Shown here one piece after another: positions 48,844 through 54,732 of a stretch of 64,000 nt of DNA. The translations under genes and the position numbers were made by a program. How positions within the stretch are numbered: the stretch's first letter is position 1; the number at the start of each line of letters is the position of its first letter. The stretch is taken from the IMG/VR virus record IMGVR_UViG_3300043610_000044, positions 4,239-68,238 of that record. One strand, given 5' to 3'. Under the pieces are notes generated by a model, which was not told the origin of the DNA, searched no databases, and saw only the letters and a program-made list of their open reading frames with translations. Origin of the DNA: a virus (lineage: Duplodnaviria; Caudoviricetes).

Positions 48844-51800
48844 ATGACGATACCTGACGGCACCGCCGCCAACGCCCGGGAACGCATCCGGGAGTGGCAG
48901 GACACCACCTACTTCCGCGGGCTGCTCGCGCAGTTGCAGATCGCCGTGACCGAGCTGGCCGCCGACTACGACCGGCTGGTCGCCGGGCACCTGCCGACCC
49001 GGGTCGCCGGGCCGGACGCGGAGGTGCGGTCGTGACCACGCCGACAACCGTCGCGGAAGTGTTGGACGCGGCGGCGGACATGATCGCCCGGCGCGGGTTC
49101 GCGCAACGCGACGCCACCAGCGCCGCGTACCAAGACAACGACTCGCCGCTGTGTCCCGGCCTGGCGTTGCAGTGGACCGGCGCCTCCTCCGAGGTACAGG
49201 CCGACGCATCCCGGCGGTTCAAGGCATACCTCGGTCACTCCGACATCATCCTGTGGTCCGACCGCGACGGCCGCACCAAGGAGCAGGTCGTCTCTGCTCT
49301 GCGTGAGGCCGCCGCAGCCGCGAGGGCCGAGCAGTGACCGACTACCGCGTCACGTTCGACCGTATCGGCCGCACCCGGGACGTGCCGCCGCAGACCTTCG
49401 CCGCCGCCGACCCCGACGCGCTCGCCGAGGCGGTCTGGTCATTCGCGCGTCCCTACTGCGGCAGCCTCGATCTGTCCGTTAGCCTCCGCCTCGATGGCGC
49501 TGGCGGCGCCCTCTTTGCGGGTGTCCGCAATGCCGGCGCGTTCGTCGTTGAGCCTCCGGCCCCGGCCCCGAGGGCCGAGCAGTGACCGGCCTGCTGCACG
49601 GGATGACCCCGCTGTCGTGGGTCCTGCTCTGTCTCCTGCTGGCCGGTGTGCTCGGTGTGCTCGGCCTCATCGTCGCCGGGGCCAGGGACGCCATCCGCGG
49701 GCGTCGCGCCGCTGAGGAGCACCGCGCCGCCGAGGACGCGCTGCGGTACGCGCCGTGGACAAGCCCTGACGACGGCGGTGCGCTGTGACCGCCGAGACGT
49801 ACGACGCCGAAGCCCTCGGCCTCGCGACCCTCGTCCAGCACGCCCTCGACGACGGCCGCGACCTGGAGCGCCGCGCCGCCGCGCTGGTCGCCCTCGCCCG
49901 CCACGACAGCTACGCGCACGACGCGGACGACCGGACGTGGACGCTGCTGCTGTTGCTGGCGCCGTCGTGGTCACCCGGCCTGTGGGCCGACCTGTGCCGC
50001 TACTGCGCCGAGTACCACGACGTGCACACGCGGATCGAAACGCTCGAAGGCGACCCGTCCGCGATCGACGCCTACATCGACGGGCCGATCCGCGACCGCG
50101 GCGGGTACCGCGAGCAGGTGCTGGACGGGCTGTGGACCGAACAGCAGCACCTGCTCGATGAGGAGATGACGGTGGCCCGGTGGATGGTCACGATGAGCGG
50201 AGATGTGGCATGAGCCTGCAGGGGTATGTCTACATCACGGCTGACACGCCGATCGTCGCCTGGGACCGGCCGGACCCGACGATCCGGATCGGCGACAACC
50301 TGCGCCTGTACCTGCGTGACCGGTCGGCCGCGGAGCGGCTGATTGCGGCGATCGGCGAAGCGTTGCTGCTGCTGTCCGATGTGGACACCCCGGCGGTGAC
50401 GCCGTGACCACCGTGACCAGCCGCACCGAACACACCCTGATGACGGTCACGATGTGGCTGACGCTCGCCGACGCCGAACCGCGGCCCTTCCAATGGTCCG
50501 TGGTGGCCGGCCGCATGTACCAGCCGCTCTCGGCCAAGCTCACCTACGAGCGACACGACTCCGACCCATGGGACGTGACGGTCGAACTGACCGGGGTCGG
50601 CCTACGGAAGGACGGCCAACCTGGCCGGATGGAGACCAGCGAGCTGTTCTGGTCCGGCCATGATGACCAACCTGACTGGTTGCGCGCGCTGGTTGACGAG
50701 TACACCCCGGCGGTGACCGCATGACCGGCCCGCTGCCCGTCGGCGCCGACGTGGTCGTCACCATCGTCGGTCGCGTCGAGTACGCCGACGAGAAGATCGT
50801 CAGCGTCGTCACCGGGTTCGGGGGCACCCTGACCGCGCCGCTGACCGCCGGGGTTGTGGTCACCGTCGTCCCGTCGCAGCAGGGGCCGCCGACTGACGCC
50901 CAGTTGGCGCGGCTGTGGGAGATGGGCGGCGCGACACCGGGGACGGTGTCTTCCGGGCTGATGGACCAGGGGCCGGCGGGTGAGCCCGACGGTAGAACCG
51001 GGGAGGGCGGGATCGCTGCGACGACCCGAGCCCTGCCCGCCGGCCCCGACCCCTGCGAGCACGCCTTCACGCGCAGCGCCGCGCCCCGCGGACCGGAGGC
51101 GTCCTGATGGCCGCCTGCCCGACGTGCCGCATCAACCACTCCCCGTACACCTGCGCGCAGTACGCGGCGCTGGCCCGCGGCGAGAACCGTGCCGACGCGC
51201 ACCGCGTCCGGACCCGGTCCGCCGACGCCCGCAGGGCGTGTCCGCTGGCGTTGACGTCGCTGCTGCTCGCCGCGCCCGTCCTGGCCGTACGACTGCTCGG
51301 CGCCTACCACACCGCACCGACCGAAGGGGGCCCGTGATGGCCGAGTACTTCGCACCGGACCAGATCTTCCAGGCGCTCTCCGGCGCCTGCGACAACGACC
51401 TGTACATCCAGCTCGACCCGGACCGGCTACTCGACGTGGAGTCCTACCTGTACGGCGTCGGCGAGGTGTCGGTCCGCGACAGGGACGGGGCGGTCGTGGC
51501 CCGTTTCCGGGTCCGGATCGAAGAGATCGAAGACGCGGTGGTGCCCGATGCCTGACACAGCCTGGGGTGTCGAGGTCAACGAGGCCCGCGTCTACGCGAC
51601 GACATCCGGCGGCGCGTGGTGGTTCGCCTTCCGGCAGCACTACGACCCGATCGGGCGGATCGTCGATGGGCCGATGACGCCGGTCGGGTCGCGGACGTGG
51701 GTGCTGTGCGAAGACCGCGCCGACGCCGACTCGCTGGCCATGCTGATGGCCGCCGCGGGGATCCACGCGAGCGCGCTGCGGGTCCGCGAACAGCCGATCG

Positions 51801-53479
51801 GCGCGGCGCAGCAGGCCCTGCTGGCCCGCATCAGCGCGTTGACCGAGGGGGAACGGTGACCGACGAGACGTGCACGCGGGAGAGCGTCACCCCCGACGGG
51901 GACATGCTGATCGTTGACTGCTCCGCGCATGGCGAGATCGGTCGCGTGCCGGCCGGCGGGGATGAGTACGGACGGGTTGAGCGGCTATGGGTGGCGCATG
52001 CCGTCGAGCCTGACTCGCCGGCCCCGGTCGAGGACCGGCGGATCTCCTACATCCGCGCGAAGGTCGCCGAGTGGGGCTCGATCGGCGCGTCCGACCTGAT
52101 GTTCGCGCTCGCCGACTTGGAGGCGCTGCTAGGTGCCTACGACCAGACGCGGGAGACCGCCGACCGGTACAACGCCGCTGTCAACAGCCTCAGCGACGAC
52201 AACGGGCGGCTCGGCGGCGAGAACGAGGCGCTGCGGCGGCTCACCGCGTCGCTGCGGGCCGACCTCGAGCAGATGACGGTGCAGCGCGACGCCGGGAGGG
52301 TCTGGAAGGCCCGAGCCGAGGCGGCCGACGCCGACCGGGACCGGCTCGCCGCAACGGTGGAGACGTTGGAACGGCAGCTCCGCGAGGCGGGCGAGGGCTG
52401 GGACACCGCCAGCGCGGAGAACGAGGCGCTGCGGGCCGAGAACGCGGTCGCCGAGGACGAGGCCCGGGACTCCATCGCCACCGCCGAACGGGTCATGGCC
52501 GAGCGGGACAGGCTCGCCGCGCAGGTGCAGCGGGTCCGAGACCTGCACCAGTCGATACCGGCCAGCGTCCTCGCTTGGGCCTGCCACCAGGACACCTGCA
52601 CTGGTCACGAATCTGGGTGCCCGGAGATCGAAGTTCAGGTCTGCGCAGAGTGCGACGAGATCCGCGGGGAGCACGACGATGAGGGCAGCGTGAAACCGTG
52701 GCCCTGCCCGACGATCGAGGCACTGTCCACCCCGGACGCCGACCAGCCGAGACCGACCGATGTGACCGACAGACATCCCGCCGACGAACGGGGCCGCTGG
52801 GAGGCGGAGGCCGAACGGCTGAAGCGTGAGACCGACCGGCTCGTCGCGCAGGTGCAGCGAGTCCGGGACGTCGCTGACCGGCTCGACGGCATGGCCGGTG
52901 ACGACCGCGACGACGACGCTGCTGTGGCGATGCGGAAGGCCGCCGGCTGGATCCGGTCGGCGCTGTCGCCGGTCCTGGCCGAGATCTACCCGGACGCCGA
53001 GCGGCCGGAGGCCGGCCAGTGACCGCCCCGAAGCGCACGGTCGAATCGAAGCAACCGACCGGGCTGGCCGTGCTAAGGCTCCTCGTTCTGGTCCTGTTGA
53101 CCGTCGGGCTGGTCGTGTTCGTGGTGTACGCGGTGCACAGGGTCGGTGACCTGCACATGCAGGCCCTGCGTTCCGACCAGGAAACGGCGAAGGTGCTGCT
53201 GAATGAGGCGCAGACCATCGGGTCGCTGGGATGGGGGGCGTTTCTCGCCGCCGTGCTCGGGTTCGGATCGGCGCTGCTGAACGTGCTGGAGGCCGGCCAG
53301 TGACCGTATCCGACTCCGAAACCCCCACCGCCCAAGTCAGCGGCTGGCTCGGCGAGGGCTACGCCACATGGGGCGGGCTGGTTGACGGCGAGTGGGTCGA
53401 GTACCAGATCGTGCCTGCCGGGGCGCACCCGCTTGCCGCTCTGTTGGAGCGGCACCTACCAACGGCGGCGACACGGTGA
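48844..53479 (+). CDS. Array of about 15 small coupled early genes, including a DUF6197-like protein (49032-49337) and a long coiled-coil mosaic protein (51856-53022)
   Basis: RTGA overlaps throughout; W.D..GRTKEQVVSALREAA motif; repeated DRL.AQVQRVRD. Confidence 0.6.
49321..49588 (+). repeat. 20-bp exact direct repeat bracketing gene 49334-49585
   Basis: CGAGGGCCGAGCAGTGACCG at 49321-49340 and 49569-49588. Confidence 0.92.
50385..50717 (+). repeat. 16-bp exact direct repeat bracketing gene 50404-50724
   Basis: ACACCCCGGCGGTGAC at 50385-50400 and 50702-50717. Confidence 0.9.
53007..53306 (+). repeat. 19-bp exact direct repeat bracketing membrane-protein gene 53019-53303
   Basis: GGAGGCCGGCCAGTGACCG at 53007-53025 and 53288-53306. 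Confidence 0.92.
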
Positions 53480-54285
53480 GCGCCGCCCTGCCCGCCTGGG
53501 CCACCGACCCCGGCGCAGCCAACGACCCCACGTGGCGGCTCGGCGAGCAGTTGCAGGACGACCGCGCTGACCTGCGCAAGGGAAACGCCCTGGTCCAGTC
53601 GCCCGACTTCATCGTGGACTTCATCCTCGACCTGACGTACAAGCCGGCCGTTGAGGAGTTCGGGTTGGCCGGCGTCACGCTGATCGACCCGTCGTGCGGC
53701 ACAGGCAACTTCCTCACCGCCGCGTTCATGCGGACCGCCGCCGGGTACCTAGCGATGCTCCGACCGTTCACGCCGCCCGGCATGGAGCCGTCCGGCCGCA
53801 CTCGGGCGGCGATGGCCCGGGACGTGCTGCGGCAGATCGCCGGGGTGGACATCGACCCCGACTGCACCGACCTCGCCCGGCACCGCCTGACCGTGCTCGC
53901 CAACCAGCTCGCCGGCCTACCCGACGACGACACGTCGCAGCGGTGGCTGTTGCAGGTGGCGTGCGCCGACAGCCTCCTCCACGGGCCGGCCTCCGACGGT
54001 GCGCTGCCACCCGACGGGCACTGCTGCGGCGACCGCGACTGCGCGCAGGCCCTGGACATCCTCGGCCGCACCTACGCCGTGGTCGTCGGCAACCCGCCGT
54101 ACATCACCGTCAAGGACCCCGCCAGGAACGCCGCGTACCGGGCGCGGTACGACGCCTGCTCCGGCAAGTACTCGCTGTCCGTGCCGTTCACGCAACTGAT
54201 GTTCGGGCTCGCGCACCGCGGCGCCGAAGCCGAACCGGCTACGTCGGGGCAGGGCGCGCTGGACCTCGAAGGGGTGCCGGCATGA
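53476..54285 (+). CDS. Truncated N6-adenine methyltransferase core resembling BREX-2/Pgl PglX
   Basis: LGEQLQDDRADLRKGNALVQSPDFIVDFILDLT, IDPSCGTGNF, IAGVDIDP, ACADSL, VVGNPPYITVKD, RYDACSGKYSLSVPFTQLMFGLA; ends about 45 aa after NPPY. Confidence 0.8.
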   Translation: MSAALPAWATDPGAANDPTWRLGEQLQDDRADLRKGNALVQSPDFIVDFILDLTYKPAVEEFGLAGVTLIDPSCGTGNFLTAAFMRTAAGYLAMLRPFTPPGMEPSGRTRAAMARDVLRQIAGVDIDPDCTDLARHRLTVLANQLAGLPDDDTSQRWLLQVACADSLLHGPASDGALPPDGHCCGDRDCAQALDILGRTYAVVVGNPPYITVKDPARNAAYRARYDACSGKYSLSVPFTQLMFGLAHRGAEAEPATSGQGALDLEGVPA

Positions 54286-54732
54286 CGGCCAAGTCTCTGC
54301 ACTACGCGGTGGCGCGATGAAGCCCAACCACATGCTGCCGCTGCAGGGCCGCCTGTACGTCTTTAGCGGCTGGACCGTCAGACGGGGCGTCGCCATGTGC
54401 ACCTGCGGTACGCAGTCCGATGCGCTGCCTACCGCGACAGCTCGCCGCGAATGGCACCGCCAGCACAGGGCGGGCGCGGTCGCCGTGGAACGCCGTGCCC
54501 GACTTCGGTTGCTCGGCCGCGACGGGGAGTCGGTCGCATGATCGGCGAACTGTGCCACTGCTGCGGCGTCGAGCCGATCGGCGACCGCGACGGGATCTGG
54601 TGCGAGGGCTGCTCGATCACCCGGCACGACTGCCCGGGCCACCGCTACGTCGCGGCCGGACGCTGGCCGGATCTGCCGTCGCTGACCTACGCCGAGGTTG
54701 CTGCGCGGCGGGCTAGCGGGGTGCCGGCATGA
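54271..54732 (+). repeat. 15-bp exact direct repeat bracketing small genes 54317-54541 and 54538-54732
   Basis: GGGGTGCCGGCATGA at 54271-54285 and 54718-54732. Confidence 0.9.

Follow-up and report, generated by a model that had tools for sequence, protein, structure and literature searches.

A reduced phage homologue of the BREX-2/Pgl methyltransferase PglX with a clamp-binding-like tail: a candidate for interference with host defence

Within the 64-kb stretch of viral DNA analyzed here (the window), which is part of the 68,238-base IMG/VR virus record IMGVR_UViG_3300043610_000044, a gene encoding a strongly shortened relative of PglX, the methyltransferase of type 2 bacteriophage exclusion (BREX) and of Streptomyces phage growth limitation (Pgl), was studied. 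Judged by its sequence, the encoded protein, mini-PglX, is a 'half-PglX' comprising the front ~60% of a BREX-2/Pgl-type gamma-class adenine-methyltransferase catalytic domain. Comparison with its relatives firmly indicates that this short PglX module is phage-specific, is under purifying selection and has a fixed truncation point. Equally firmly, mini-PglX is considered unable to read a DNA sequence and to be missing part of the catalytic fold. Furthermore, its disordered tail resembles a docking peptide for the sliding clamp. Tentatively, mini-PglX is proposed to represent a non-catalytic, clamp-docked PglX-like module that would interfere with Pgl/BREX-2-type defence. The broader proposal that the reduced PglX homologues of actinophages are clamp-docked dominant-negative mimics of the BREX-2/Pgl methyltransferase at the replication fork is more doubtful. 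The gene under study is:

53476..54285, plus strand: mini-PglX gene (P0001), encoding 269 amino acids (aa); recognized from the open reading frame (ORF) and its translation and from a match to the BREX-2 PglX profile; the start is backed by an alignment of homologue N-termini.

Mini-PglX specifically resembles PglX. The NCBIfam profile BREX_2_MTaseX (NF033451) matched mini-PglX with an E-value of 1.9e-59 over profile positions 178-415 of 1185, the runner-up family reached an E-value of 7e-5 and the PglX profile of PADLOC gave 4e-62. No other methyltransferase family is as close as PglX to the region spanning motifs X to V. The NF033451 score amounted to 201.4 bits (198.6 bits on the whole record), which is below the curated equivalog cut-off of 400 bits, and the Pfam family Eco57I (PF07669) scored 31.8 bits against a cut-off of 25.3. 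Residues 20-255 share 40-47% identity with PglX proteins of ~1200 aa, and every long relative of mini-PglX turned out to be a PglX of about this size. Motifs X, I, II, III, IV (NPPY) and V are all present, in gamma-class order. An initial annotation made from the letters of the window had pointed out this likeness and quoted peptide segments in its favour; all of these segments were found in the translation of 53476-54285, and the family named there was borne out by the profile searches. The translationally coupled start and stop described there were also seen: the GTG start shares the sequence GTGA with the stop of the gene upstream, and the TGA stop shares the sequence ATGA with the following ATG.

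The remaining PglX architecture, consisting of the N-terminal helical domain, motifs VI-VIII, the target-recognition domain and DUF7008, is absent from mini-PglX. A profile built from 92 full-length PglX sequences recovered only positions 181-416 in the six frames of the window, the 68,238-base record yielded this single match and no second PglX piece, and neither a target-recognition domain nor a specificity subunit was found in mini-PglX or in the record. A split gene was considered and rejected, as the full-length PglX profile, applied with E-values up to 1 to the six frames of the window and to five related phage loci, returned the known piece only. Because both the target-recognition domain and strands beta5-beta7 are missing, mini-PglX cannot be a sequence-specific methyltransferase. 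On these points, namely the missing N-terminal region, later motifs and target-recognition domain and the lack of a working sequence-specific enzyme, the initial annotation was right. HemK-like glutamine methylation via NPPY, with a glutamine of the tail as substrate, was another candidate; it was dropped, since its basis consisted only of matches with an E-value of 0.1 over NPPY.

Structure prediction with AlphaFold2 (AF2) using a deep alignment resulted in a model with a predicted local distance difference test score (pLDDT) of 89 and a predicted template modelling score of 0.88. The model comprises strands beta1-beta4 and helices up to residue 245, followed by a disordered segment (residues 250-269). 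Its residues 16-249 match residues 209-552 of the type 1 PglX from Salmonella (8C45) with a Z-score of 15.6. The match to M.TaqI (2NP6) stops at residue 157 (Z-score 9.7, 30% identity over 129 residues); the catalytic domain of M.TaqI is ~243 residues long. Full-length PglX runs straight on into beta5 (AGxVGxITxNSFMKREFG...), whereas the mini form lacks beta5-beta7. The elements recognized along the protein, including the binding motifs for S-adenosylmethionine (SAM), are the following:

53587..53610, plus strand: motif X (ALVQSPDF), residues 38-45; no variation at A38, L39, Q41, P43 and F45 among 19 short forms.
53686..53706, plus strand: motif I (DPSCGTG), residues 71-77, forming the glycine loop that binds SAM; D71, P72, C74, G75 and G77 are invariant, and these residues are conserved in full-length PglX, too.
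53842..53856, plus strand: motif II (GVDID), residues 123-127; G123 and D125 are invariant in short forms.
53965..53976, plus strand: motif III (ADSL), residues 164-167; D165 and L167 are invariant in short forms.
54019..54042, plus strand: signature of the mini clade (HCCGDRDC), residues 182-189, within the insertion between motifs III and IV; H182, C184 and C189 show a conservation of at least 90% in A1.
54091..54102, plus strand: motif IV (NPPY), residues 206-209; invariant across 119 aligned short and full-length sequences.
54169..54210, plus strand: motif V helix (YSLSVPFTQLMFGL), residues 232-245, the last folded element; helix at residues 235-245 in the AF2 model.
54223..54282, plus strand: disordered C-terminal tail, residues 250-269; the pLDDT is 51-58 with the deep alignment and drops below 40 with a shallow one, and except for its motif the tail is unalignable across the family.
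54250..54267, plus strand: QGALDL, a clamp-binding-like Q-x-x-L-x-L motif, residues 259-264; recognized by motif enrichment in the tails of short forms.

In the short forms, constraint is relaxed at many positions that do not vary in host PglX, but the residues of the SAM pocket are retained. Position 127 in motif II is D in 96% of the short forms compared with N in 100% of full-length PglX, and position 241 in the motif V helix is L in 96% compared with R in 98%. At the site of the HCCGDRDC signature, the consensus of full-length PglX reads HxYxxED, and midi relatives (described below) are devoid of the insertion. The H-x-C-x4-C signature, nearly invariant in the mini clade, could be a metal site or form a disulphide that stabilizes the cut-down fold.

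A search for proteins of near-equal length yielded ~20 relatives of 255-293 aa with 41-77% identity to the copy in the window. They have a common end point just past the motif V helix (...VPFxELxFGLAHRG), which is followed by 6-40 variable residues. Many 'PglX' matches of 400-470 aa also end near this position; they were rejected as an artefact of the length window applied in the search, as the positions of their ends vary between -51 and +38 residues. The contigs encoding the same-length relatives represent phage early regions of at least five genome types, in which the gene lies near recombinase or replication genes: a Rad52 type (L002), RecT/YqaJ with DnaB (L006), ERF with RusA (L007), an integrase with NUDIX (L009) and the window with AAA_24. 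For the two closest pairs, the ratio of nonsynonymous to synonymous substitutions (dN/dS, NG86 method) was 0.146/0.661 = 0.22 (P0001-P0002) and 0.199/1.116 = 0.18 (P0014-P0015). Since the truncation point is fixed across relatives, dN/dS is ~0.2 and the residues of the SAM pocket and NPPY are invariant, the gene is not regarded as a decaying fragment. The initial annotation had suggested looking for same-length actinophage homologues with dN/dS below 1, which the ~20 relatives now provide, and had named random truncation as the mark of a pseudogene; the end point is fixed.

In a tree calculated for the shared region, a branch with 97% support splits all 27 short forms from all 92 full-length PglX sequences. 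The short forms may represent an old phage lineage and not a recent capture, a reading kept tentative by the missing root of the tree and by its long phage branches. The capture of a host fragment assumed in the initial annotation is not supported as a recent event, given the branch that sets the short forms apart from the sampled full-length PglX. The family is small when clustered at 50%. Neither the mini form nor a midi form had a DNA or protein match among 50,697 GenBank phage records, and a scan of 185,579 species genomes gave, as its 80 best matches, exclusively full-length host PglX with at most 46% identity and no prophage copy of the mini form.

The tails of the short forms bear the motif Q-x-x-L-F/W/L or Q-x-x-[LF]-D-L, mostly 3-10 residues before the end. 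For this analysis 45 short forms were considered, comprising the mini forms together with the midi proteins P0008 and P0013 (the first 30) and further architectures. The motif was detected in 20 of the first 30, with 0.35 expected from shuffled tails (at most 4 in 2000 shuffles), and in 12 of the further 15, i.e., in 32 of 45 in total. It was found at none of 102 C-termini of full-length PglX and at only three of 160 ends of other phage ORFs from the same loci. A clamp motif located inside host PglX was also considered and rejected, as no conserved column corresponds to it. The relatives' tails read QLDLF, QLSLF, QLGLF, QLELF or QGxLF, many of them being textbook QLSLF or QLDLF. The beta-clamp-binding consensus is QLxLF and is usually located at the C-terminus (PMC4549789); an actinobacterial example of a clamp motif is QLPLWG of ImuB (PMC10421592). 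The replisome, and not free Pgl complexes, is thus indicated by the tail motif of the family, which is clamp-binding-like and absent from host PglX. In a Streptomyces prophage, a 252-aa protein encoded directly downstream of a DnaB-like helicase (L010, 15183-15941) also possesses a clamp-like C-terminus (QPGLF).

The wider family was drawn from IMG/VR contigs, protein libraries and Streptomyces prophages. Apart from the mini forms, it comprises the following architectures:

Midi forms (L091-L099, P0008, P0013): profile positions ~120/180-510, with the full catalytic domain and no target-recognition domain.
395-aa forms (P0058, P0062 and others): most of the N-terminal helical domain kept; P0062 lies in the prophage-like region L010.
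Circularly permuted forms (P0358, P0367, P0378 and L101, 3044-4573): motifs IV-VIII first, then the helical part with motifs X-III, then a QLxLF tail.
Micro forms (L098, L103, L105): helical domain and motifs X-III with the tail kept, no NPPY.

Motifs VI-VIII of the midi forms score ~200 bits against host PglX, and these proteins carry the same tail as the mini forms. For the micro forms, no partner encoding motifs IV-VIII was found in the 4 kb flanking them on each side. A tree of the X-III half places the midi proteins P0008 and P0013 beside P0001 and P0002 with 100% support, in a clade that otherwise consists of mini forms only. The tail of P0013 matches that of P0002 almost letter for letter, and the IV-VIII block of P0008 and P0013 is without the PglX insertion present in mini forms. 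Hence, the back half is acquired, lost or exchanged, whereas the front half that binds SAM is retained, as is the tail. Catalysis looks dispensable for the family, considering that the micro forms lack NPPY and that mini and midi forms interchange within one lineage. Large Streptomyces linear plasmids, namely pSCL3 of S. clavuligerus (L135, 6968-8278) and 36 others, encode a PglX-like 'DNA methylase' of ~434 aa (P0071 type). These plasmid genes encode neither a target-recognition domain nor a clamp-like tail, and a second such gene, for a 194-aa 'N-6 DNA methylase', is located 4 kb away.

Regarding the genomic setting, the record is viral according to IMG/VR, with a completeness of 89%. Genes for a terminase, a tape measure protein, a tyrosine integrase, an AAA_24 recombinase-like ATPase and an HNH protein were identified, and the terminase shares 36-38% identity with those of Gordonia and Mycobacterium phages. 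Based on the terminase, tape measure and integrase genes and on this level of identity, the virus is considered a temperate actinophage without a close cultured relative. No pgl operon surrounds mini-PglX; its neighbours are phage early genes devoid of informative Pfam domains. A PglZ domain was not found in the 68-kb record, and because the longest convincing ORF is the tape measure gene (1029 aa), there is no room for PglW or PglY, in agreement with the initial annotation, which had seen no pglW, pglY or pglZ. A sliding clamp encoded by the phage was looked for, and none was found. The GC content at third codon positions (GC3) of the mini-PglX ORF is 0.89, the same as in adjacent genes. The same operon encodes, upstream at 51616-53022, a long coiled-coil protein of 391-468 aa (depending on start choice), for which Pfam gave weak coiled-coil matches only. 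Directly downstream, a very short reading frame was observed, which may serve translational coupling:

54282..54320, plus strand: micro-ORF of 12 codons (MTAKSLHYAVAR); ATGA overlaps join the mini-PglX stop to the start of the next gene (ATGA at 54317), as read from the sequence.

An all-against-all BLAST of neighbouring genes did not reveal any gene common to all mini-PglX contexts. The 204-aa protein encoded downstream of a mini form in L002 (10810-11424) is 34% identical to the product of a helix-turn-helix-containing gene located upstream of the 395-aa form in L010 (9240-10004); the window has no equivalent. Moreover, an Acb2/Tad1-hairpin gene (L006, 11696-11965) lies two genes downstream of the mini-PglX homologue P0014, and a gene with an Acb5 domain lies near the midi form P0008. 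Their presence suggests an anti-defence neighbourhood of these relatives.

According to the favoured reading, the half-PglX would be made early in the lytic cycle and its tail would dock on the host beta clamp, which is proposed as the partner because the phage encodes no clamp of its own. Once docked, the protein would act non-catalytically on replicating phage DNA, where it would compete with or mimic the SAM-bound core of PglX-type methyltransferases. As a result, the Pgl/BREX-2-type modification of nascent phage DNA, and its restriction, would be blunted. In Pgl, restriction follows the PglX-dependent modification of phage DNA (PMC4365076), so that blocking this modification would pay for a phage. 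The constant parts of the family, i.e., the SAM-binding half and the clamp-like tail, suggest a non-catalytic, replisome-docked protein. A role directed against Pgl/BREX-2 is plausible because the module is PglX-derived, because relatives occur near the Acb2/Tad1-hairpin and Acb5 genes and because modification by PglX leads to restriction.

Several observations weigh against this proposal. In M.TaqI, NPPY chiefly holds the target base and not SAM, and the invariance of NPPY wherever the region is present hints at substrate binding or catalysis. The N-terminal helical domain of PglX has been proposed as the interface to the BREX complex (PMC12839542), and mini-PglX lacks this domain. The short forms constitute an old, separate clade that does not track host PglX. 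In an AF2 model based on the 19 short sequences only, residues 1-200 are confident and residues 207-269 are not; because confidence in this fold is low after residue 206, the motif IV-V segment is only putatively stable on its own. With regard to the tail, QGALDL of the window, positioned five residues before the C-terminus where pLDDT stays under 60, is a looser match than the QLxLF of its relatives, and the motif is missing in 13 of 45 short forms, including P0003 of the closest related phage. The invariant NPPY and the catalytically complete relatives leave a methyltransferase-related role alive as a possibility, and a clamp function unrelated to BREX is possible, too.

The first alternative, which appears unlikely, considers mini-PglX a clamp-tethered DNA adenine methyltransferase, or a subunit of one, with little or no specificity, in which the clamp would replace the DNA-reading domain and methylation of nascent phage DNA would allow evasion of restriction and BREX. 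It would account for the invariance of all SAM-pocket and NPPY residues, for the midi relatives that keep motifs VI-VIII together with the same tail, and for the occurrence of permuted yet complete versions; moreover, orphan methyltransferases are a known means of counter-defence in phages and plasmids (PMC11541004). However, beta5-beta7 (motifs VI-VIII), which contribute to the fold and to the base pocket, are missing from the protein of the window, the phage encodes no complementing piece, and the micro forms keep the tail although they lack NPPY. In addition, methylated DNA is restricted by some Streptomyces (PMC4365076).

A second possibility, rated as rather unlikely, is a replisome-directed takeover or regulatory protein unrelated to BREX, the tail of which would fill the partner cleft of the clamp while the PglX-like domain would serve as a folded, perhaps SAM-sensing, body. 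Apart from motifs X-III, no feature is kept as consistently as the tail motif, and recombination and replication genes adjoin the gene in every context. The clamp is also exploited by insertion sequence (IS) transposases (PMC4549789), by TnpA of Tn3 (PMC11417375) and by MuC of phage Mu (PMC12867686). This explanation gives no reason why the body should always be a PglX-type SAM-binding half with an intact pocket, which a simple clamp blocker does not need, and it has to accommodate the 13 members devoid of the motif.

The mechanism envisaged in the initial annotation does without the clamp and assumes a free decoy that would poison assembly of the Pgl complex or sequester SAM; this version is improbable. 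The specific PglX homology and the conserved truncation are in line with it, and SAM is required for BREX defence, as stated in two reports (10.1101/2023.02.27.530186, 10.1101/2024.04.12.589305). However, one-to-one sequestration of SAM by a protein with a single site would be quantitatively implausible, the conserved tail motif is left unexplained and the N-terminal domain, i.e., the proposed complex interface, is absent from the mini form. A pure assembly poison would also not need the residues of the SAM pocket and NPPY, which are invariant. Finally, a decaying methyltransferase-gene remnant without a function of its own is very improbable and already disfavoured: the truncated fold, the small family and its absence from the GenBank phage records and from the best 80 genome matches would fit, but the frames are intact with a fixed end point across copies of 41-77% identity in five genome types, dN/dS is ~0.2, both the start and the stop show translational coupling, and the codon GC3 conforms to that of the genome.

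The proposed clamp-docked interference module was also compared with known systems. PglX (BrxX) of BREX type 2/Streptomyces Pgl (NF033451), with its structurally solved type 1 relatives 8C45, 8Q56 and 9EWZ, has motifs X and I-V and the fold in common with mini-PglX, and host PglX likewise contains the insertion of PglX type between motifs III and IV. In contrast to host PglX, mini-PglX has only ~22% of the length, is phage-encoded without a pgl operon and has gained a C-terminal tail of QxxLF type. Gamma-class N6-adenine methyltransferases (M.TaqI 2NP6, CamA 7LT5, Eco57I PF07669) feature the same motif order and SAM-binding half-fold, whereas the remaining catalytic domain and the DNA-binding domain of M.TaqI are absent from mini-PglX. 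Clamp binders of mobile elements (IS transposases, Tn3 TnpA, Mu MuC) likewise use a short peptide of QLxLF type near the C-terminus in a flexible region; here, in contrast, the motif is located on a half-methyltransferase and reads QGALDL, and clamp docking is putative. Viral cas genes acting as inhibitors (10.1101/2023.06.24.545427) are also reduced viral homologues of a subunit of a host immune complex and follow the same proposed logic of competition, but they concern another defence system, and inhibition by mini-PglX is a proposal.

Few phage countermeasures to BREX/Pgl are known, namely Ocr, SAM lyase and a handful more. Ocr of T7 (PMC7261183) and the SAM lyase of T3 (10.1101/2023.02.27.530186) act through PglX or SAM, the proposed target space of mini-PglX; unlike these, mini-PglX possesses a methyltransferase fold and is neither a DNA mimic nor a lyase, and there is no likeness in sequence or fold. 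No anti-BREX factor of the half-PglX kind turned up in the literature searched, which also covered a survey of BREX diversity from 2026 and a catalogue listing 268 anti-defence proteins; this agrees with the initial annotation, whose author knew of none.

Databases would call mini-PglX a DNA methylase, which is very probably wrong. If the proposed interference holds true, mini-PglX would be the first anti-BREX factor derived from a subunit of the defence system itself, and it would provide a handle on where BREX-2/Pgl acts (at the fork) and on which surface of PglX matters. Even if its function were unrelated to BREX, a replisome-tethered half-methyltransferase would represent an undescribed kind of phage accessory protein.

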